A stretch of DNA of 41,944 nt from Asterionella formosa (taxonomy: Eukaryota). The stretch's first letter is position 1; each line of letters starts with the position of its first letter. A program made the position numbers and the translations under genes. The stretch spans positions 1 to 41,944 of the forward strand of contig NKIB01014630.1 of NCBI GenBank assembly GCA_002256025.1, in the 5' to 3' direction. Under the pieces are notes generated by a model, which saw nothing but the letters and a program-made list of their open reading frames with translations, was not told the origin of the DNA and did not search any database. Positions 5,161 to 33,919 of the stretch are shown here, piece by piece.

Positions 5161-7191
5161 TAGAGCTACTGGTATCATATGCATATCCTCATGATTTCGT
5201 CGACTAAACAAACGCACATCAACGAAATTTGGACCTACAACGTACGTACGCCGATCACCCAAGAACAATGCATCTGCCTCATTTGCTGTGGTGCTACATC
5301 ATGATAACCTGGTAGTTGCTTCAGCTTATTTCAGGGCCATTCTTATCATAATGTCATTGGGCAACATTGGTGTATTATCTCCGCAATAGGATACAAAAAT
5401 GACTGTTTGTATCATATTTTGGTATCACCACCGGGATTTTAGGGCTGTTCATATCATTTTTCATTGTGTATCACAAAATTGAAATTTTTTGAAAAAGTAT
5501 GAGCAACAGTAACTTGATTTGAACTGAATTTCATTCATTCCAAACTTGGCACTGTATCACAGTGTATCATGGTGTAACATGGATCATTAGCAGCAACAGG
5601 CCAGCTATGAGCATCTAAAAATATCTGAGCCGTAAATATGCATAGGCCTATGCATAGCCTAAATAAAAATAGCCAGAATATAATAACATATATATCATGT
5701 AACAGAGTCTGTGTATACATGCTACTAGTACCAGTACTGGTGGGAGACTTGTCCTCAGCATGTTGTTAACACATTGACCATGTTGATAATTGGCCATGGC
5801 TTGATCAAGTTGCTGCACCTTTGAAGTCTAATATGTCATTGTATGAACAATGCAATAGAGAAATAAATATAGATATGTCTTTAAAATTGCGTAGAAATTA
5901 CGAATCTACGATGTAAAAGAATATTCGTCAATTTTTAGGAATACAAATAGACGACCTATGGAATTGTTCCAGCAACACGATTACAGCTATAACTACTAAT
6001 ATGGCTAAAACAATACTATCATAGGACAAAAGGGCTTGCAAAAGTGGTATGAAGCTAGAATTTCAATTAAAGATGCTACTAAATCAATCGATTGGTGCAC
6101 CAGTGGTGTTTTCATGTTGCGCTGTGATGCTGATGTTGATTTCGGCACTGTCATGTTTACAGTTATTTTATCAGTGCTATCAATTATAGTGAGGACAACG
6201 ATAGCGACAACGACAACGACAGCAACAGCAATTTTGATGTCAAAAAAATTTATTAATGAAGAAGAAAAGACTCATGGCAACCACGACATGGACTCTGAGA
6301 AAAAGAAAAAAACCGGATGAAACAGAAGAACACGAAGAAGACCCTTACTTGTTCTTAATTCGCACACTAGCAGTGATGAGGATGACAAATCATTGCAACT
6401 TCCTATTGTAAAGAAGGCAAGAAAAAAAGAAGTCTACAGTTGCAAAATCAAATCCCCCAAGTAGTGTCATTTTTGGCTACACATATTTTTGTGTTATCAT
6501 TGTGTACATGTGTTCGAAACACAGAGGTGATCATGTATTGATGCTTGGCCAGCCTGCAACTATGGTCGAACTGGATACAAGAAAATTCAGGCACAAATAC
6601 ATTTTTGATCGACTCATAACTAAATCTTAGATGATGATGGTGATGACTGCAATGCTCTTGCCTTTTCACAAGACCCTCATTGGGATCAAGTGTTAATGCA
6701 GCGAAAATAAAAGTGCTGCGGTCTTCAGCAGCACCCAGACGCAAAAAGAGATCCTTCATGTTTTCGTTCTTTATAAAAGTCGTCTTAAGACTGCTCGGAA
6801 GGAATTGGAAGAGTTGGAAGATCGTGGCTGACGATGACTCCGAAAATTCTGATGAAATTCAGGCTCAGCTAGAAATTAAGATATTCAAGAAAAAGGGGGA
6901 TCACTATTTTCATCTGCTTTCAGAAGCTGAAATATCACATTAAATCCAAGTAGTGAATAAACTATTTAAAGGTCTACATTAAATTAATTTCATGTAATTC
7001 TTTTCTCCTCCTCTCTATATTGACATGAGTTCATTGCAAGCCCATGGTTTGCAATCTGGTAAGAAAAAAATCTGTCATAACATAGCTTCTAGGCATTACA
7101 CACAATGGTTCCACAGTTGGTACGAAGCCCCAACCAAGGGGTTGTGATGAGTCGACAAGGATTATTTCAGCAAATATTTGATTATTATCCA

Positions 7192-7412
7192 GTGGAATAG
7201 CTTAGTTGGTAAGCTCAGCTTTAAAGATGGCGGGGTCGATTCCCGCATTCTACACCTGCTTTGTTTATGTTGGTAGTCCCTTGGGTTTCAGTTGGTGAGG
7301 CAGACAACAAGCAGGTCTTAGGCCCTCTGGGGGGCCAAGTGCAACTTCACAACCTTCACAATTGTCAAGTTCTTTAACAATAGCGTAGTACTTTAAAAAT
7401 TACTTAATAATT
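7192..7412 (+). mobile_element. tRNA-derived SINE-like element, family B, copy with TSD
   Basis: A-box TAGCTTAGTTGGT, B-box GGGTCGATTCCC and an AT-rich tail. Flanked by TATTTGATTATTATCCA (7175-7191) and TATTTGATTATCGTCCA (7413-7429), a 15/17 match. Confidence 0.82.
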
Positions 7413-7519
7413 TATTTGATTATCGTCCATAATCTCGTTATCGATTTTCTTCTCATTAATAACGTTATTGTGAAGTCGAGCATTGATTCAAGAACCAGTG
7501 CAGATTTTTCCAAGCTTTT

Positions 7520-8510: not shown

Positions 8511-8814
8511 TTGATGCAAAGGTTTGTGATGATTATTTTAATATTCATATTATATATTAATAATATACTGCTGCCTGACCATCAATATTGTCTGGAGGGA
8601 TATACACATTTTTATCGCTGGTCTGTTGCCGTTGAAACTCTGTGTTATACCATGATACACTGTGATACAAATTAGTGATTCAATTTTATGTGGAGAATGG
8701 AAGAAATTCAGTTCAAATCGGCTTACCGTTGCTGATACATTTTCAAAAAATTTCAAATGAAATGATACTATATGGAAAAATGATAAGAATGGTTCTCATT
8801 GTTTTCATGATTGT

Positions 8815-15194: not shown

Positions 15195-15803
15195 GTCTGT
15201 AAATAAAACTTATCATGAAAATATGATCAAGGGTATCATACGCCAAGTGGCAAAGGATTTTCACATTTATGATAGTTTTTCGATCAAAAATATGATCAAT
15301 GTATCATATAATTATGATCATGCAGTAAACTTTTACCGAGCTTGAAGAATGATGAGACTATCATATTTATAATACCATTGCATCATATAATTAATTAAAC
15401 ATGGTCATATGATGTGTATACTTTTGTCATACATCTATCTTAGCATGATCGTAATTCTCATCGATATCACTGTCTAAAATAGGATGAAATTGATCGAAAT
15501 TTAGAACTATATTTAGCTAAGAATGGTTCTATGATTCTATCATATCTTAAGTGGCTAAAGAATGTTCTACAATGCTCTCATTGCAATGATTGTTGGTGCC
15601 GCTTTCACTTCCACCTCCCCCTCCCCCAATCCAATTCTGAAGGTTGTTGTAGTAGTGCTGGTTGCCTTGCCGTTGTTCCCCTGCTTTGTTCCATTTACTC
15701 CTGAGTGCTGTTCCGAGTTTGCATTCACGCACTATTGAATCCGTTTCGTTGTTCCAATCAGCCATACTAACAAAGAGAAGCAATTCATTGTTAGCTGTTC
15801 ATG
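15195..15803 (+). repeat. ~610-bp dispersed repeat, copy 2
   Basis: Direct repeat of 1333-1941. Confidence 0.93.
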
Positions 15804-25128: not shown

Positions 25129-26644
25129 CACAGGGAACAAAAATGCCCTTTATTGGAATCCATTACAAAGTGAAAAAGATTTTACTAAAACAAGGATAAC
25201 CTTGTATTGCTTGGCTAGCCGTGTAATAAGTGTTGTGAATCCGTGCTCTCACCAGCCAATTCAAGGAAATAGGCACTTTCCGATACAAGATAATTTCAAA
25301 AATAATCCTCCCATACAATATAGGGATAGTTTCTCTGAAATATGGTTTAGTCCAATACAAGGTGTACCTTCTTGTATTTGTTTTTACTAAATTCTCATCA
25401 ATCTTAGTACTTTGTATTGATAAACCAATCAGATCACTAGTTCTGATTTAAGGTCTACCTTTTGGAGTACCTTGATTTGGACCCAATAACTCACTATCAG
25501 GAAAATCATTTTAAGGTTCTTTATAGCAAACTAATATCTACAATACTATATTCGTTTATAAATGTTAAAGTTATTATGCTATTTTAAGAAGAAATGCAAA
25601 CATTATGGAGTCCTATAGCAATATTGATTTTCTAGAAGTGTTGGAATCATCTGTTGGTTCTCAAATCCCAGCTTTGCCTTCATCGTAATTCACCACTTTA
25701 CCAGTCAAACAAAATTGGAGCGCTGAGAAAGATATTTACATCTGTTACCTGCCTTGTATTGGGACATGAAGTAGTACAGCCAAAACACAATACAGAGGCA
25801 ACCTTGAATTGCAAATTTTTTCACCTTCTATTGAGATGTGACACATTGCCAACAAAACACAATACGATCGCAAACTTGAATTGCAAAGTATTGTCACCTT
25901 GAAAAGATAGTATGTTTTATAGCCCATTCATACTCCCCTATTTCTAGGCAAGTATTTCATTATGCTACCTGCTGACAAGACTTGTGCTCCCTACTTTTTT
26001 AGCGTAGGTGAGTCCCCAACCACCTTTCACCAAATGTGATTGTCTTAGCCGCAGCGTTAGGGGAAACTCCGACCGCCTAGGAAGGCGGGGATACAAGCTG
26101 CTTGTAAGGGGGCAACCCACTATTTCTTGCACACCAAGCAAGGCAAGACCGCGCGGGACAGTAAGGAGTGTGAGAGTCGAATCCAACAATTGCTTCTCAA
26201 AAAATTGCGGGAATTGAACCTCAGGACCTCAGATCAAAGGCAACGTGCTTAATCACTAAGCTATTCCCTACATTGTCACCTTGAATTGTGACTAGGCTAG
26301 CTAGACCTTTTATTAGATATAAAGGGAAAACCTTGTCTTGGGTGATATTTCCTAGTAGCCAAATAACGGATCACCTTGAATTGGAGTGACGCCTGCAGTT
26401 GCTTGTTTTCACCTTGTACTACTGGAATTGACATACCAGCCTTTCGCCAACACAAGGTGAAAATTGTATTATTCTCTTCTATTGGAAATACATTAAATGA
26501 CCAATACCTTCTTGTATTGGACAATGTTGTGATGCCCAATACAGGGTATGCCTGGATTTGAAAGACGAAAACCAGTTGAAAACATCCAAAAAATGAAAAC
26601 ATCCAAAAAATTTCCAATACAACAAGGTAATCTTGTTTCCAGTG
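25129..26644. mobile_element. Non-autonomous CACTA/CMC-like element with subterminal motif arrays; hosts a SINE A insertion
   Basis: Left end CACAGGGAACAAAAATGCCCTTTATTGGAA versus reverse complement of the right end CACTGGAAACAAGATTACCTTGTTGTATTGGAA. Many CCTTGTATTG/CAATACAAGG and CACCTTGAATTG motifs in both orientations. The TSD is not clean. Confidence 0.55.
25904..26271 (-). mobile_element. tRNA-derived SINE-like element, family A, copy with TSD
   Basis: Minus-strand head GGGAATAGCTTAGTGATTAAGCACGTTGCCTTTGATCTGAGGTCCTGAGGTTCAATTCCC has an A-box and B-box, with a second B-box-like GGATTCGACTCTC. Exact 14-bp flanking direct repeat ATTGTCACCTTGAA at 25890-25903 and 26272-26285. Second copy at 608-935. 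Confidence 0.85.
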
Positions 26645-26884
26645 TTTATACATTGCTGGAGCAATGGGTAACTATAAGTAACCCGGGGCTTGGAATGACT
26701 GTGACAACACATTACCTGATGGTACCTCCTTGTACCATGGCACTCCCACCATTAGCACCCTAAATTCGCCAAGCTGAGCTCATTTTTGCAAGAATGTCTC
26801 CGACTTCAGGTAAGTTCATAGGCTGGTACCTTTAGACATTGTGGTAAAAGACGGTTCTTACTATAAGGAACACACATCTCAGAA

Positions 26885-27107
26885 GAATGGCTTAATTGGT
26901 TAGCACACATCATGAGGTGGAGGGTTCGATTCCTGCATTCTCCACCTGTCTATCTTTTATGAAGTTCCTAGGGTTTCAGGGGGTGAGGTTGACAAAGAGA
27001 CAGGTTCCAATGTACCGTACAAGCGAAAAAACCGGTACTAATTGTTTCCATTCAAGTGTGAACAAGCGAGATAATTGGATAGCTTTAACATACTTTAAAA
27101 TTTAATT
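26885..27107 (+). mobile_element. SINE-like family B, diverged third copy or subfamily
   Basis: A-box TGGCTTAATTGGT and canonical B-box GGTTCGATTCC, with the shared core CATTCTCCACCTG..GGGTTTCAG..GGTGAGG..CAGGT. The 3' half has diverged but ends in a similar TACTTTAAAA tail. Confidence 0.65.
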
Positions 27108-28230
27108 GCCTCAATTTCTCATTTACTGCAACCTGCTGGTGCTGTCAACTTGTGGTAGATTTGCCAATAAATGATGATATGTTCATTGCTGATATTCATG
27201 GCTGCTGATCCAATACTTAAATAATATTCTTGCCTGTCTGGAAAACAGTTATCTTTCATTTGTGGCACAATCATTTTGAATAATTTTCCACTTGAAATCG
27301 ATTTGGCTGGAACTGTTTTAGCACGAAACTCAATCCCCCAAATGTAGCAAGGTTTGGGAAAACTGGTTTTTCAGAAACTCATTCCTTACACTTGCATATT
27401 GAAATTAATTGGGCCAGCGTTGAATTTGAGTGTCTGTCTGGCGCCCTGTTTTATGTTTTGGTAAAATGATCGCAATTTGCAAGGGTAACAGCCCCCCCCC
27501 CCCTCTCCTTGATTGCACGCTGACTTAAGTCCATGTACTCCTGGTGGTACATGATGGTGACTTACATGTCAGTTTGTTAAAACTCATTGCTATTTGAATT
27601 ATGTCCATCATGACTGCTAATGATAATACTTCTGGTGCAAAGTCACAAATCAAGTAGCAGCAGATAAGAAATAGGAATTCTATCATTATGAATTCACTTT
27701 CTTTGAAATTTCATTGTGAAGCATTTGTCCTCCTTCAGATGGTGATATTGAAAGATAGTTGAATATTGATACCTTGTGTGAAAGTCTAATTCTTGTCCAC
27801 ATCTGGTAACCTGAAAAAGAAGCCCTTCTTCCACCACAGTAATTGAGTAATCCCAAATTGTTCTATTAGTCCCTGAATGTGTTGCTGGTTCCAAAGCAAA
27901 CAACCAAGACTTCAAATTACCCCAACACAATAAGCTTTATTCCAGGAGCCACGTTCTCGTGCCACCTAGTGAACGTTTATGGGACAAGTTGGGACTTGTA
28001 ACAAGAAGTAAGGTGTATAATGGTACACCTCTAAAAATAAGGGAGTTATGTACAAACTGTTCAAGACTTTTCAGTACTTCTTCAAAGCTCAGTGAATTCC
28101 AGGGTACACCTGCATCTGAAGAAGCTGCATGGCTGATCAGTTCTTTCTGAAAATGTGAGTGGACAGCAGGAGTGCTGCAAGGAGGATTGTTGAACTTGCC
28201 ATTATTCCGTGACATTCAAAATAAAAATAA

Positions 28231-29067
28231 TCACCCAGGCAACAATGGCGTGAGTCCTGCACGAAAGGTTTCATAGGCACCGAAGAATACAAATCCTCCT
28301 ATACTTATCCACATGACACGAGGTTGGATGCCACGAAAAAGTGTTGCCATTCCCTCTTCGTTTCGAATCCGGTACAATACGTCGAGTGCCGAGTTGTATG
28401 GGATACCTGCCTTGTCCTTGCCCAACATGAGGCGAGTTTTCAGAACGTCGAGCGGCGTGGTAACAGCAGCTGCGAGTGCTCCACTTGTGGATCCACAAAT
28501 TGCTGCTTGTACTGAAGAGACAGGCATTTCTTGCTGCGCGCTCCAAGCCACCTTGCCATATTCATAGAGGGGAAACTGGATCATGGCGAAGGGTATTTCA
28601 CGCAACAAGGTAATCCCATAACCTCGATACAGTCCTCCCAATAAACCATAAGGCTCTCGTAAGACGGTTTGAAACGTATGCATTAACCCAACTGTCTCAC
28701 CAATTTGTAATTTTGCTTTCAGGACTTCAGTTGGGACACGGACCAAACAAGCAGCAGCTTCACCGATCGAGGCTGCTATCATGTGTGACAGTGGTTCACT
28801 CTCTATGACTCGTGACTCCATAATTAGGGGCTTGAGGTATTCGTAAGTGCTGAAAAATAAGGCAGCTCCAGGAGCCGATCCAATGGCAGCAGCCCCAAGT
28901 CCGTTGTAGATGCCTCGCACTCCACCTGCCTTGAGGAACCCTTGGGGAGACTGCAACCGTGTTTTTATAGTATCAATAGGGAATAGGGCGACATCGACAG
29001 ACGTTCCCGCCATACCACCAGCGATAAGGGACACGAGGAAGGACGAGGCAACAGGAGCGTCCGCCAT
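28231..29067 (-). CDS. Mitochondrial carrier family protein, S-adenosylmethionine carrier-like (PET8/SLC25A26 type)
   Basis: Three carrier signatures (FPIDTIKTRLQ, VPTEVLKAKLQ, TPLDVLKTRLM), plus REIPFAMIQFPLYE and PRVMWISIGG typical of SAM carriers. Intronless; start taken at MADAPVASS. Confidence 0.9.
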   Translation of the reverse strand: MADAPVASSFLVSLIAGGMAGTSVDVALFPIDTIKTRLQSPQGFLKAGGVRGIYNGLGAAAIGSAPGAALFFSTYEYLKPLIMESRVIESEPLSHMIAASIGEAAACLVRVPTEVLKAKLQIGETVGLMHTFQTVLREPYGLLGGLYRGYGITLLREIPFAMIQFPLYEYGKVAWSAQQEMPVSSVQAAICGSTSGALAAAVTTPLDVLKTRLMLGKDKAGIPYNSALDVLYRIRNEEGMATLFRGIQPRVMWISIGGFVFFGAYETFRAGLTPLLPG

Positions 29068-30096
29068 GGTGATTATCTGTACAAGGTGGGATTTTGTATT
29101 GCGCTCTTCCTTGGACGAAGAAAGTGCCAATGATCGGTGGTCGTGATGTCGTGATGCCATAAATACTCTGTAGGAAAATCGGATTGAGGACAGCACACCG
29201 GTACATAAATATCATCGAATAAGTGTGTAGACCCAATTGGCCTATTATTAGCATAACCCTACCCCTATTGTATAAAACATTTTGCAGCTTAATTGGCCCC
29301 TTCTAATCACATTGACCATGTCGGTACTCTTCTGTTGCTTAACTCAGCAAAATAACAATCTCCTACGCCGCTTGAAATAGCCATATCTCCGCCATGAGCA
29401 GCGCTACCAGTAAACCCATCAAGCGGCATGGGAGCACATGATTTGGATTATATATGCACTATTTTGTGGTGGGCATGATGCCAATCATGCCTACATGCCT
29501 GATGGATTCACAATGACAAGCGTATTGGCAATTCTTGGTAGTTAAAGGTGATAAATTCCAACACAAGATTGCATGTGATGATGTTTCGCAATTTAAGATT
29601 GCCCCTGTATTGGTTTTTGGCCGTACTAACAATTCACATCCCAAGAATGCAAGATCATAGTAAGTTTAGGTGATGATAATTTACAATTCAAGGTTGACCC
29701 TGTATTGGACTATAGTGCGGCTGGTTAAGTGTATATATGAGATTATAGTAATTCATATTGACTCTACAAAACTGTCATTTGTTGCTGTACATCATCATCC
29801 AGAAATGCATATTTTCAAAAAGTCAAAATTTCGACAAGGTGTCTGTCTGGCTGACATATCATGATGTCACTCAAATAATTCTGAACTGAATACATAAATA
29901 AATGCGCGCATAAAAATTGCATACACACTGGAACATGATCACTAAGCCAACAATTCTATTTGAAAAGCCATCATAAAACCCAAACTTGCCTGGGTTAAGA
30001 CCCACATTGGCTGAAGGGTTAAGTTTTCCTGATTCAATTGTAGAAATCTTCTAAGTATATATGATATATACAAAAAAAACCGGTATATATTATATA

Positions 30097-30310
30097 GATA
30101 GCTTAGTGGGTGGGCTCACCATCCAAGGTGGCGGGTTGGATTCCTGCATTCTTCACCTGCTTTTTTATTTAGTCCCTTGGGTTCTGGGTGGTGAGACAGA
30201 GCGACAAGAAGCAGGTCTAAGGCCCTGTGGGAGGCCAAGTGCAACTTCACAAGCTCCACAATTGCTTAGTTCTTTAACAATAGCATACTATAAAATTTAC
30301 TTAATAATTA
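30097..30310 (+). mobile_element. SINE-like family B, second copy
   Basis: Colinear with 7196-7412, sharing TAGCTTAGT, TAGTCCCTTGGGTT, AAGCAGGTCT, GGCCAAGTGCAACTTCACAA, AGTTCTTTAACAATAGC and TTACTTAATAATT. Confidence 0.8.
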
Positions 30311-30586
30311 TACATAGATATACGTTAAGCATAGTTTGATAGCTTCTAGGATGGCACACATGAGGGCAATTGAGTTAGAGAAAATACTAGGAGTTTAAAT
30401 GGCCCTGACAAAACTTTTTGAATTGCTGCAATAACTTTCAACCTTAAGGATTACCTGGTACCAGGTAGTCTAGTCTAATGCTGTCATGTCTACAGGTAGA
30501 CTAGTCTGAGATTTTGGACATAAAGATACTTGATATAATTATGTAGTTAGTATTTGATTTCCATTTATTGCATAGCTGTTTTACTT

Positions 30587-32463
30587 CTATTGCAGTTGTC
30601 GCTCATAATCATCCCATTCTTCTCCAATCACAAACTTCATTTGCTGTAGACTATTGATAATCATACGTCGGACCTTGTCGGGTTTAAGACCAACTAATTT
30701 GCTGACTTCAGCGATAGTTAACGAGCCTTCGTACCCAGGTGGTAATTGCTCCTGATCCACCATTCCAAAGCGCAGCATCAGCAACTGGACTTCAGTTTGT
30801 GTCAAATGGCGATTGAGGGTCTCGATCAAGTCTTCGCGCAAAAAGACCCTTTCTAGCGTTCGGTGTTCTCCATCATCTGTTTTGCTGGCAATAATATCGT
30901 ACATGGTATCAGAGGAATGATCGCCATTGTTAGGTTTGAGAGAATTTGTCAGGGTTTGATCCAACGAATAAATTCGCTGATCCATGGCGCTTTTACACCG
31001 TTCTATTTGCGCCACACTCATATCAACGGCCGTACTCAACTCTATCTTGGTTGGTGCCCTCCCCAGGGTGAGCCTCAGCTCAATTTCTGTCTTGATGATT
31101 CTCTTGTAGTTTGCATGTAGTCGCTGCGGTATCGGAATGACTCGCGACTGGACTGTTTGCGATCGTTTGACGGCAGCACGAATCCAATACATGGCGTACG
31201 TGGAAAACCGAAAACCTCTTTGGGGCTCAAATTTTTCGGCGGCTCGGATCAGTGCCTTTTGGCAGAAACATATAAAATGAGAAATAATTCACTTTATACA
31301 ATCAGGACTTGCGGGAACAACGAACTCACCATGATCCCTTCCTGCATCATATCACCTGCATTGTATTGTCCACCCAACCCGTTTCTGATGTAGGTGTTGA
31401 CCACATACTGTACCATGCGCAGATTCGCAGTTACTAACTTGTTCTTGGCCTCTAACCCCTGATCCATGGCTTGTTGAATGGCTCCGAGATTGATCTTGCC
31501 CGCTGCTGCGCACCATTCTTCGTCTTTGGGCTCACGTCCCAACTTTGTTTGTAATTTGTCATATAAGTTTTGCAGTCGGATAGCTTCTTGTGTTAATTTC
31601 CCCAATTCACACTCTTCCGTGGGTGTAATTCTATCTTCCTGAACATCAGTACATTATTTGTTTCGTTCGCGAGTATTGGTTAGCTGAGTTGAACTTTGCG
31701 AAACGACTGTATTTGCCTCTTGCACATGAGGAGTACATACCTTATGAATCTGATTCGCAAAATGCATCATGGAATCTGGAACAGCCGCACTTGTCCTGTA
31801 CATGGCTTCACCGTGAGTTTGCTTCCGTTTTTGGCGCGCCTTTTCCGAAAAATGTGCCGCCAAACTATTCCCCGACCGTGATTCAGCCATAAAGATTCCG
31901 TCTTCAAATGCCGTTTCACGAGGGCTGGCAACAAACCCAGGCATTGTGGAAGATCTAGATTTAGTGCTTGGCTGACGATCCGGGACGATTCTGGGAGGGT
32001 GAATAGAATGTCGGTGCAAGGCAACTCGTTTAAAGGATGGTTTACCGGGGGAAGATTGAACGAGTTCTTCTTCTGAGATGTAATTTTCACTGTATGTGCG
32101 TTGTCGGACTGCATCTCGTTGAGTCGTGGATTTGGAGTGCACCTTGCTTTCGATTACGGCATTATCATGGTCATTGACTTCATCGAAAGCATCCGGAGAC
32201 GAAAGATTGTACATGGTTTCAATATCCGATAAATGCCTTCCCCACTGCTGCTTCGCCGCGGATTCTCGCAACAGAGTGTCTATGTCTCTCACAGCGTGGC
32301 GTTGTGTGGATCGAATGGCGTGCTGACATGACAAACTGGGGGAGAAGGGAGCCACAGACGAGGCAGACAGTGCCAGCGTGATAGCTGTAGAAATCCATGT
32401 TCGTCGTCGTCGCATAGCTGGTGCAGTGTCGGGGGCCATCAGCCTTCTACATTGAAGGCCCAT
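30587..32463 (-). CDS. Nuclear-encoded plastid RNA polymerase sigma70 factor; 3 exons
   Basis: Exons about 32463-31741, 31638-31330 and 31255-30587; introns 31740-31639 (GTATGT..CAG) and 31329-31256 (GTGAGT..AAG). Region 2 ([44 protein letters not shown]), region 3 (LGRAPT) and region 4 HTH (LTIAEVSKLVGLKPDKVRR). Signal-like ITLALSASSVAP-F. Start is 32463 or 32415. Confidence 0.93.
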
Positions 32464-33919
32464 GTTTTGTTTGATCGTGATGAGTAATAAGTATGCACTA
32501 AGTGTGCAAACGGTAACAAGAATTCGAGTTGAACAGCAAATAACCACTCAGAATCGAGCAGCACGTTCGTTGACAGCTGAAGCAGGAGCAGGAGCAGAAG
32601 CAGAAGCAGAATTCAGTTCAATATCTTTGGCTGCACTGACTTGATCCTGACAATCAATCTCATGACCTTTTCCAAGTCAATGATGTGTTCGTTCAGAGCT
32701 GGTGTTCGCACAGCAGCCAGTGGATCGGAAGACTGAAAAATGGCGGAGGTGGCGGACGAAGAAAAATTACAGAAACTCGAATGATGACGACATGTTTTGA
32801 CCACGACCATCAGCCATTCTTCTTCTGGTGCTTCGCGTCTTTTCGCTCGTGAGGATGCACGGTGGCGAACAAGCAGCAGCGGCAGCTTGTCAACCCGTGC
32901 GTTTGTCGTCACAATTACATCATACACCGGCATGGCTATGATATATATTTAATTAATTGGCATACATTTATAAATGTACATATCGGTACATGTTTGAGAT
33001 CCGAAAGATTCCTCCAAAAGTATATGTACTACGTACTTGTTGATACGTACAATCGATTAGTACCCGGTAGGTAAACTTCTGAAAGATGCACCAATTGAGA
33101 AATGTAGCTCTGTTTGTCGTACATAGCGGTGCGTAGTAGATAGAACCTTCGCCTTTTGCCGCAACTTCCCTGATAATCACGGTTTACCACGAATGCATAC
33201 GTAGTAAAGGGTTGACGTATACATATACCGGTAAACAAACCTGCCCAACACCTGTCATTCTACATCCATGCTTGCTGAGTGAGTGAGTCAGTGCTATTTT
33301 AAGCAATCTTGCTTGACGCTCGAGTGAATGACGTATGCACAGCATCAGAATGAGGTCAGTGTTCTCATCTGCCATGTCATACTGACGATACGTTGATGCG
33401 TACGAAGCAAGACCACATGTTATGTGTTACTGAGGTAAATGAGATTTTTAGCTATGTTTTCCTTATAGTAAGAACAGTAGTTTACCGCAACTGCCCTGGT
33501 AAGATGAAACCTGGTAGCAGGTACCTGTAGCTATTAATTAGGTGGGTTTTCCCGCACCTAAAATTCCAAGAAATGAAAAGGAAGTTTACCTTTGTCTGTT
33601 GTAGCCTTGTACCAACATTTGTGTGTAAGGCGAGAAAAAATTCTCGATCATTTCCTGAATTGAATTGTTGCGGAATAACCTAAATTCCCCACATTCTTAG
33701 AGAGCTGTTTTTCCTTCATTTAGTAATGAAGAACTTTAGCGCCTGCCCTGCGTCAGAAGCAAAATGACTGCAACTCATTGCTTGCTGATGCGACTGCTGC
33801 TGCTGCTGGACAAGCCTATCATTGCCGGTATAAACTACCAGGTACACGTGTTACCTTGTGCTCACCTACAGTAGTGGTACCAGCAGTGATGTCTATCATT
33901 GATGACAATCATTCGTTAT

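Follow-up and report, generated by a model that had tools for sequence, protein, structure and literature searches.

We analyzed a 41,944-nt stretch of Asterionella formosa DNA (contig NKIB01014630.1, positions 1-41,944; referred to below as the window) that contains three copies of a short repeat. There is strong evidence that these repeats represent a tRNA-derived short interspersed element (SINE) family of a freshwater diatom, with two lineages assembled from shared modules. Each copy, 213-227 nt long in the window, has a tRNA-like head, an 8-bp helix that begins directly behind the head and encloses a core of 46-47 nt, a lineage-specific segment and an A/T-rich tail. The repeats combine a tRNA-derived 5' part with a short, non-coding, dispersed and multi-copy nature, and they are accompanied by target-site duplications (TSDs) of variable length and by empty sites, as is characteristic of tRNA-derived SINEs. 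We lean slightly toward the complete account, in which the helix of this modular element was kept by selection on the RNA of the source genes.

The SINE copies

The three copies have the following positions in the window.

7192-7412, plus strand: SINE copy 1, full length, 221 nt, lineage 1
26882-27108 (refined bounds), plus strand: SINE copy 2, full length, 227 nt, lineage 2
about 30097-30309, plus strand: SINE copy 3, lineage 1, 5'-truncated by a few nt

An earlier note on this DNA, made from the sequence alone, had reported three repeat copies, and all of them were found again on the plus strand. A 20-nt head pattern with up to 3 mismatches matched only these three sites in the window (0.01 matches expected by chance), and a 21-nt core pattern likewise matched the same three sites only (0.00 expected). 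Searching the whole window by nhmmer with a profile of seven copies, of which four come from metagenome contigs described below, returned the three copies only, with E-values of 4e-66 for copy 2, 7.9e-47 for copy 1 and 1.3e-46 for copy 3. A covariance model scored copies 1, 2 and 3 at 131.7, 139.7 and 106 bits, respectively, and gave one extra weak match in the window, at 26145-26269 on the minus strand (E 0.066), inside a different repeat. No open reading frame (ORF) of at least 150 aa was found at the SINE copies. Copies 1 and 3 are 88% identical over 88 nt of the lineage-specific segment, while copy 2 and the metagenome copies share another sequence there.

A scan of metagenome contigs yielded six loci. 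Four of these are copies of the family (L001, L003, L005 and L006), all of lineage 2; L002 has the head only, and L004 is unrelated. Neither the head pattern nor the core pattern had any match in viral contigs. Four head-pattern matches in genome contigs were rejected, as all were unrelated bacterial DNA, and two phage contigs that matched a lineage-1 body pattern were both unrelated as well.

Insertion signatures and abundance

Sequences flanking the copies carry the marks of insertion listed here.

7175-7191, plus strand: 5' TSD of copy 1, 15/17 identical to 7413-7429
7413-7429, plus strand: 3' TSD of copy 1, pair of 7175-7191
30085-30100 and 30304-30320, plus strand: TSD of copy 3, about 16 nt with indels, overlapping the copy bounds
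26839-26881, plus strand: left part of the repeat hosting copy 2, with a paralogue at 33445-33490 (minus strand) that lacks the SINE

Three of the four copies examined are flanked by TSDs (copy 1, copy 3 and L005, versus copy 2), and the duplications differ in length (17 nt for copy 1, about 16 for copy 3, about 12 for L005 and about 6 for copy 2). The 17-bp TSD of copy 1, with 15 identical positions as previously described, was confirmed; only 2 of 1000 shuffles scored as well. For copy 3 this was the case in 19 of 1000 shuffles, and for L005, where the duplication is 11/12 identical with one indel, in 31 of 1000. The TSD of copy 2 comprises about 5-6 nt recognized by eye, and its best local match was reached by 719 of 1000 shuffles and is not significant alone. 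Insertion of this copy is documented by its host sequence. The paralogue at 33445-33490 runs uninterrupted through the insertion point, and contigs from two public DNA runs, X1 and X2, join 26863-26874 to 27113-27115 without the SINE, representing empty sites for copy 2. Several such paralogous contigs without the SINE occur in X1 and X2, and the host repeat of copy 2 is therefore itself multi-copy. The flanks of all three window copies differ from one another.

Contigs of the two DNA runs were also used to locate the ends of the family as a whole. At a likeness of at least 80%, 2579 contigs of X1 and 506 of X2 could be aligned. Loose-ended contigs accumulate at 26897 (39 in X1, 14 in X2), where their consensus continues through the family 5' end and then becomes variable, at the 3' end of copy 2 at 27108 (53 in X1, 19 in X2) and at the 3' end of copy 3 at 30309 (36 in X1). 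Agreement of the flank consensus at these family-wide ends is low (0.45-0.68). In X1, summed depth was 741.6 for the neighboring single-copy gene, 270,631 for the bin of the head (about 365x) and 41,879-90,273 for the bins of the body; in X2 the corresponding values were 32.9, 5,334 (about 162x) and 1,051-1,620. Over both runs the body bins are at 32-122x the single-copy level. Summed depths are not copy numbers, and we therefore describe the multiplicity of the family only as tens to hundreds. The proposal of the earlier note that the repeats are retrotransposed, tRNA-derived SINEs is thus borne out by the tRNA-like head, the TSDs, the empty sites, the sharp family-wide ends and the high summed depth.

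It is very improbable that the repeats are instead miniature inverted-repeat transposable elements or fragments of a larger transposon. Such an origin could be read into the position of copy 1 between long inverted repeats (5479-5608 and 8614-8756) and of copy 2 inside another repeat. However, there are no terminal inverted repeats at the copy ends, the TSDs vary in length, the three window flanks differ, the family-wide ends coincide with tRNA position +1 and with the A/T tail, and the paralogues of copy 2's host repeat lack the SINE.

The tRNA-like head

The head of the element spans about 62 nt.

7192-7254, plus strand: tRNA-like head of copy 1, with acceptor, D and T arms and a shortened anticodon arm; Rfam tRNA family RF00005

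Comparison of copy 1 with RF00005 gave 23 bits (E 0.012) over model positions 1-71, with the consensus letters of the D and T arms retained. The head of the metagenome copy L003 scored 30 bits, above the gathering score of 29. ARAGORN did not call a tRNA gene, which is consistent with the shortened anticodon arm. In tRNA genes the internal promoter of RNA polymerase III (Pol III) consists of an A box in the D arm and a B box in the T arm; in the head of copy 1 we take the regions around 7198-7209 and 7233-7243 to be the A box and the B box. Isolated heads of copy 1 and L003 fold into cloverleaf-like structures, with z-scores of the minimum free energy (MFE) of -3.32 and -2.64; the head of copy 2 gave no cloverleaf-like fold (z +0.50). 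Pair 2 of the acceptor stem is T-A in copy 1 and G-C in L003, a change on both sides of the stem.

Sequences similar to the head also occur apart from the two lineages. In the metagenome contig L002 (positions 556-620) the same tRNA-like head is followed by unrelated sequence without the helix, and 41 loose-ended contigs of X1 have a similar head variant as their consensus at 26916. By summed depth the head is several-fold commoner than the body of either lineage. The excess of the head over the bodies and the unrelated continuation in L002 indicate that the head seems to be common to further SINE families.

Core, lineage-specific hairpin and tail

Behind the head, the parts of the element outside the helix arms are as follows.

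7262-7308, plus strand: core domain of copy 1, 47 nt, enclosed by the helix and conserved between the lineages
7321-7336, plus strand: hairpin 2 of lineage 1, GGCCC / GGGCC
27012-27038, plus strand: hairpin 2 of lineage 2, GTACCG / CGGTAC, 6 pairs
7375-7412 (copy 1), plus strand: A/T-rich 3' tail, common to lineage 2, no poly(A)

The two lineages share the head and a 63-nt unit of helix plus core, and differ in the next 60-90 nt. Few parts of the element are as well conserved as the core and both helix arms, and the motif GGGTT..GGTGAG, which had been noticed before, is present in the core of all three window copies. Each of the lineage-specific segments forms a 5-6-bp hairpin at the same relative place. 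In the lineage of copy 3, the majority letters of the aligned contigs at 30227 and 30232 restore the GGCCC / GGGCC hairpin. Within the lineage-2 hairpin, one pair varies among the copies (copy 2, G-C; L003, A-U; L005, G-U); both of its sites are CpG, where such transitions come easily.

The A/T-rich sequence common to both lineages at the 3' end is about 25 nt long and has no significant fold (z +0.08, +0.57 and -0.61). The earlier note had suggested that the helix might be a recognition domain for reverse transcriptase (RT). This suggestion found no support: the 3' part that the lineages share, where priming by RT is expected, is the A/T-rich tail and not the helix.

Nor did we find support for the idea of a ribozyme or a known structured non-coding RNA. 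At gathering scores Rfam had no match in the whole window. With E-values up to 10, copy 1 gave tRNA-clan matches (tRNA and permuted tmRNA) on the head and, on the opposite strand of the head, an unrelated weak match to Plastid-ycf2 (17.4 bits, E 0.47). With E-values up to 1, five metagenome loci matched only tRNA and tmRNA on the heads, with no ribozyme family and no match on the core. One could still imagine that helix and core are an independent structured RNA or a self-cleaving ribozyme captured by the SINE, since conservation of the core extends across both lineages despite their different next segments, and the helix closes it. Yet no ribozyme family appeared in these scans of copy 1 and the metagenome loci, the helix domain folds no better than shuffled sequences (see below) and the predicted internal pairs differ between the lineages, which leaves a captured RNA highly unlikely.

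The helix

The helix arms were located in each of the window copies.

7254-7261, plus strand: helix 5' arm of copy 1, ACCTGCTT, directly after the acceptor stem
7309-7316, plus strand: helix 3' arm of copy 1, AAGCAGGT
26944-26951, plus strand: helix 5' arm of copy 2, ACCTGTCT
26998-27005, plus strand: helix 3' arm of copy 2, AGACAGGT
30155-30162, plus strand: helix 5' arm of copy 3, same as copy 1, ACCTGCTT
30209-30216, plus strand: helix 3' arm of copy 3, same as copy 1, AAGCAGGT

An 8-bp stem at these positions with two pair swaps between copies had been described earlier, and both the coordinates and the swaps proved correct; the arms enclose 47, 46 and 46 nt in copies 1, 2 and 3. The lineages differ at two adjacent pairs, C-G/T-A in lineage 1 versus T-A/C-G in lineage 2. 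As the helix starts at the nucleotide after the acceptor stem, there is no unpaired trailer behind the head. The helix is part of the local MFE fold in three of three window copies, and RNAalifold places it in the consensus of three lineage-2 copies and of two lineage-1 copies. The same program also predicts hairpin 2 and a cloverleaf for the head of lineage 2, with a partial one in lineage 1.

Pairs were counted from anchored arm ends in the seven copies, since MAFFT and covariance-model alignments were gapped inside the arms. Counted in this way, 53 of the 56 helix cells are paired (51 Watson-Crick, 2 wobble), and sliding the 3' arm by 1-3 nt leaves only 16-24 of 56 paired. Pairs 1-5 are invariant in the seven copies. 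Copies 1 and 3 have C-G at pair 6 and T-A at pair 7. At pair 6, copy 2, L003, L005 and L006 have T-A; at pair 7, C-G is found in copy 2 and L005 and the T-G wobble in L003 and L006. L001 is mismatched at both (C/A at pair 6, C/C at pair 7). At pair 8 all copies have T-A except L005, which has G/A. The letters CAGGT of the 3' arm, which lie outside the pattern used to search the metagenomes, are intact in four of four metagenome copies. Among the variants listed (42 of 165 rows) there is no majority variant at stem positions, and flanking positions do vary; the arms of copies 2 and 3 therefore probably correspond to the consensus of their lineages. These variants are given per position, without linkage between the arms, and are of no use for covariation; the absence of stem variants is a weak hint only.

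To what extent this pairing exceeds neutral expectation was estimated by simulation, using the divergence of 24.6% between copies 1 and 2 (30 substitutions at 122 aligned sites), one third transitions and 2,000,000 trials. All eight pairs were retained in 3.5% of trials. Full pairing with at least two two-sided changes occurred in 0.13%, and fully Watson-Crick pairing with at least two two-sided changes in 0.04%. Allowing for a handful of candidate stems, the probability is about 1 in 100 or better. What goes beyond chance is the presence of the stem at the same place in both lineages together with the two-sided change, and not an 8-bp stem as such.

Several observations weigh against selection on the helix. 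Of 300 mononucleotide shuffles made from each of copies 1, 2 and 3, 62, 82 and 61, respectively, contained a perfect 8-bp stem (20-27%). The 71-nt helix domain folds no better than shuffled sequences (z -0.01, +1.02 and -1.02), and the same is true of the 144-nt 5' part of the copies (z -0.57, +1.23 and +0.12). For the three lineage-2 copies the covariation term is unfavorable (+2.12). Three of the 56 cells are mismatched (pairs 6 and 7 of L001, pair 8 of L005), which may reflect decay after insertion. Conservation of the first 5 nt of the 5' arm is uninformative in the metagenome copies, because the search pattern specified these letters. The two-sided change is known from two lineages only and affects adjacent pairs, so it may be a single evolutionary event. 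Moreover, a pairwise aligner prefers one T..A pair inserted on both arms; under either alignment reading there could be one or two coupled events.

These points bring in a different explanation, in which the repeats are SINEs, but the helix is a neutral, ancestral inverted repeat whose apparent compensation arose by one coupled event, such as template switching within the hairpin or a paired indel, or by chance. Besides the adjacency of the changed pairs, their restriction to a separation of two lineages, the preferred single insertion, the frequency of shuffled stems and the non-significant folds, this explanation is favored by one contig of X1 that joins the two arms with 2 nt between them (26948 to 30209), the core being deleted exactly between the arms. 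An inverted repeat can drive such hairpin-mediated rearrangement at the level of DNA or cDNA. Template switching offers a published route: it is reported both to produce hairpins and to preserve them, with seemingly compensatory changes for which selection is not needed (PMC8794818 / bioRxiv 10.1101/2021.04.15.439925; this and the other sources cited below were available in part, and what we say of them is limited to those parts). On the other hand, full pairing is seldom retained in the simulation at the observed divergence, and the T-G wobble in L003 and L006 is an intermediate expected under a pairing constraint. Two-sided changes are also found in two other helices (acceptor pair 2 in copy 1, and hairpin 2), and the core with both arms is among the best conserved parts of the element.

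The earlier note had claimed that the structure was under selection in the source genes. For this claim the evidence is suggestive only: pairing maintained through a two-sided change, the wobble in two copies and the low simulated probability of 0.13% speak for it; what tempers it is that two lineages only are known and that coupled mutation is a live rival. Because of the shuffled stems, the non-significant folds, the two lineages, the known template switching and the arm-joining contig, we favor selection on the RNA of source genes by a small measure only, and regard a neutral origin or coupled mutation as a serious though less probable explanation. A conserved helix is plausible.

Transcription and mode of spread

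The anatomy of the element suggests how it might multiply. The head would supply a Pol III promoter and/or an RNase P site fixing the 5' end, and the RNA would start at tRNA position +1. The RT of a long interspersed element (LINE) could then prime on the shared A/T tail and copy the RNA to new sites, and this retrotransposition would leave TSDs of variable length. The helix, if stacked on the acceptor stem, would remove the single-stranded 3' trailer, and RNA without a trailer may escape cleavage behind the head by the tRNA 3'-end nuclease, so that the full length is protected; it could also hold the core in a fixed shape. The anatomy, the insertion signatures, the multi-copy nature and the pairing pattern are observed; Pol III transcription, dependence on a LINE, selection on the helix and its role are inferred, the first two from the established biology of SINEs. 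Protection by loss of the trailer is a model of what the helix may do, and in the literature we found nothing for or against it.

Some results speak against this scheme. In five of the seven copies a run of T4-T6 occurs 6-12 nt after the helix start; copy 1 and L005 have none. In a tRNA gene the place of this run is that of the Pol III terminator. If diatom Pol III stops at the T run, a full-length RNA, and the helix with it, would not arise from the internal promoter but would need read-through or host transcripts cut by RNase P. Several contig joints have the letters CTTTG after 26948, which suggests that many lineage-1 copies resemble copy 1 and that lineage 1, the more abundant one, is often without a T4 run. 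The RNA data were contigs of poly(A) or cDNA metatranscriptomes. In two RNA runs, X10 and X11 (the latter a poly(A) library), 46 of 50 and 34 of 40 RNA contigs, respectively, lie only partly on the stretch compared, and copies of the SINE were seen only within longer unrelated contigs; contigs cannot show RNA ends. No RNA contig from its own locus covers copy 2 or copy 3, and uncovered parts carry no evidential weight. Furthermore, none of the 16 window ORFs of at least 150 aa matches a reverse transcriptase, and no partner LINE was found in the window.

A 5'-truncated copy of the family, aligned to 26926-27019, is contained in an RNA contig of 681 nt at a depth of 3036 in X10 and of 912 nt at a depth of 1503.5 in X11. 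For comparison, RNA depth of the neighboring carrier gene is 226.9 in X10 and 42.8 in X11. This truncated copy has 17 differences in 94 nt, and among the matches listed (42 of 165 rows) none of the 9 that can be attributed falls on the 16 stem positions. As the truncated copy is found in a very abundant RNA contig, some host mRNA carries a SINE fragment.

Another possibility is that copies are carried in transcripts of Pol II or in read-through transcripts, that RNase P cuts at the head, giving the precise 5' end, and that the processed RNA is reverse-transcribed. In that case RNase P would account for the conservation of the cloverleaf, and the fate of the downstream fragment for that of the helix. 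The T4-T6 runs, the abundance of SINE pieces in long RNA contigs, the coincidence of the family-wide 5' end with tRNA position +1 and an acceptor stem whose pairing is kept through a two-sided change would all fit such processing. We nevertheless consider it improbable, although not negligible, as all three window copies have well-preserved A- and B-box regions and the T4 run is absent from copy 1 and L005 and, it seems, often from lineage 1; the RNA contigs, for their part, do not reveal RNA ends.

Genomic setting

Judging from its genes, the window is diatom nuclear DNA. Among its ORFs are matches to COG7, a CLC channel, a mitochondrial carrier and further eukaryotic families. The best named relatives of the mitochondrial carrier (28231-29211, minus strand) have 58-69% identity and come from many diatom genera, and one 99% match is to an ENA assembly. 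Public runs that contain the region are lake and freshwater metagenomes and one "algae metagenome".

28231-29211, minus strand: mitochondrial carrier gene
30587-31288, minus strand: ORF with sigma-70 region 2 and region 3 domains (E 1.7e-06 and 3.3e-07), about 280 nt from copy 3

The latter ORF probably encodes a nuclear-encoded plastid sigma factor, as its domains would suggest.

Other repeats were noticed in the window. A second repeat of about 380 nt is present in two copies on the minus strand (606-942 and 25902-26278), which are 82-89% identical with one 40-nt indel. On this strand it has a tRNA-like start that includes a T6 run and a second motif resembling a B box; Rfam tRNA gave no match to it at E-values up to 5, and the weak match of the SINE covariance model at 26145-26269 lies within it. 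Inverted repeats of about 130 nt at 5479-5608 and 8614-8756, 79-80% complementary, bound a 3.3-kb segment that contains copy 1. This segment may be a DNA transposon or another element with terminal inverted repeats that the SINE has entered. Direct repeats at 1366-1941 and 15227-15803, 93-99% identical over several blocks and 13.86 kb apart, may represent a recent duplication or a young transposable element. Summed DNA depth is about 6-20x the single-copy level in X1 and X2 at 29240-29747, between the carrier gene and copy 3, and at 27208-27334, just 3' of copy 2; these are other repeats.

Significance and comparison with known SINEs

The clear anatomy, the insertion signatures and the high summed depth indicate that non-LTR (non-long terminal repeat) retrotransposition has been substantial in at least one freshwater diatom. 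As a marker, the family could be of use in phylogenetic and population studies. Its insertions lie between genes and close to them, and abundant mRNAs carry copies. The head with its adjoining helix provides a defined RNA for studying how tRNA-processing enzymes and the LINE machinery deal with such hybrids. A more far-reaching and rather doubtful hypothesis is that a diatom SINE superfamily has a functional RNA module in the helix-closed core of 46-47 nt, directly behind the head, a module selected in source genes as it decides the fate of the transcript, either by blocking cleavage behind the head or by binding a host or LINE protein, and exchanged between SINE lineages. If true, diatoms would have their first defined SINE core domain, which would offer a way into the workings of their non-LTR retrotransposition.

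Constraint on the structure of SINE RNA is an idea already known, and has been reported for instance for the S1/SB1 elements of Brassica and Arabidopsis (PMC2408557). Like the diatom family, S1/SB1 has a tRNA-related head with an internal Pol III promoter region, is short, non-coding, dispersed and flanked by TSDs, and contains stems that appear to be under a common structural constraint (PMC2408557). The tRNA fold is reportedly not retained in SB1 RNA (PMC2408557), whereas the diatom head scores as tRNA (30 bits in L003) and folds into a cloverleaf. Further differences from S1/SB1 are the diatom host, the A/T-rich tail without poly(A) and the helix abutting the acceptor stem.

SINE superfamilies with a central domain include the CORE, V, Deu, Ceph and Meta families and those of molluscs. 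Modular SINE families sharing a central domain are known (PMC4758252), and the diatom family resembles them in its layout, with a head, a conserved central domain and a variable 3' part. Unlike in these superfamilies, conservation of the diatom core is known within one diatom and a few metagenome contigs, and not across classes or phyla.

In the 3' stem-loops of stringent-type SINEs and LINEs, compensatory changes have been taken to indicate functional RNA structure (PMC3747384). Compensatory changes in a SINE stem are common to those elements and to the diatom family. The stringent-type stems are described there as lying in a LINE-derived 3' end and serving RT recognition (PMC3747384); the diatom helix, by contrast, adjoins the head and is 90-100 nt away from the 3' end, and the tail shared by the lineages has no significant fold.

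The earlier note had also remarked that SINEs are little described in diatoms, and the parts of the literature available to us agree, as SINEs appear there only as classes of repeat annotation (PMC8147415, PMC7466962, PMC5859163). Thirteen copies of a "putative SINE", totaling 1,454 bp, are given for Phaeodactylum tricornutum (PMC5859163), SINEs are a repeat-annotation class in Cyclotella cryptica (PMC7466962), and diatom SINEs are stated to be reported in few species only and not to be understood (PMC8147415); what was available of PMC12803021 concerns GC content only. These annotations (PMC5859163, PMC7466962, PMC8147415) share with our family the host group and the class of transposable element. 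They are, in the parts available, pipeline classes without a described anatomy, whereas boundaries, TSDs, modules and high summed depth are documented for the family presented here.

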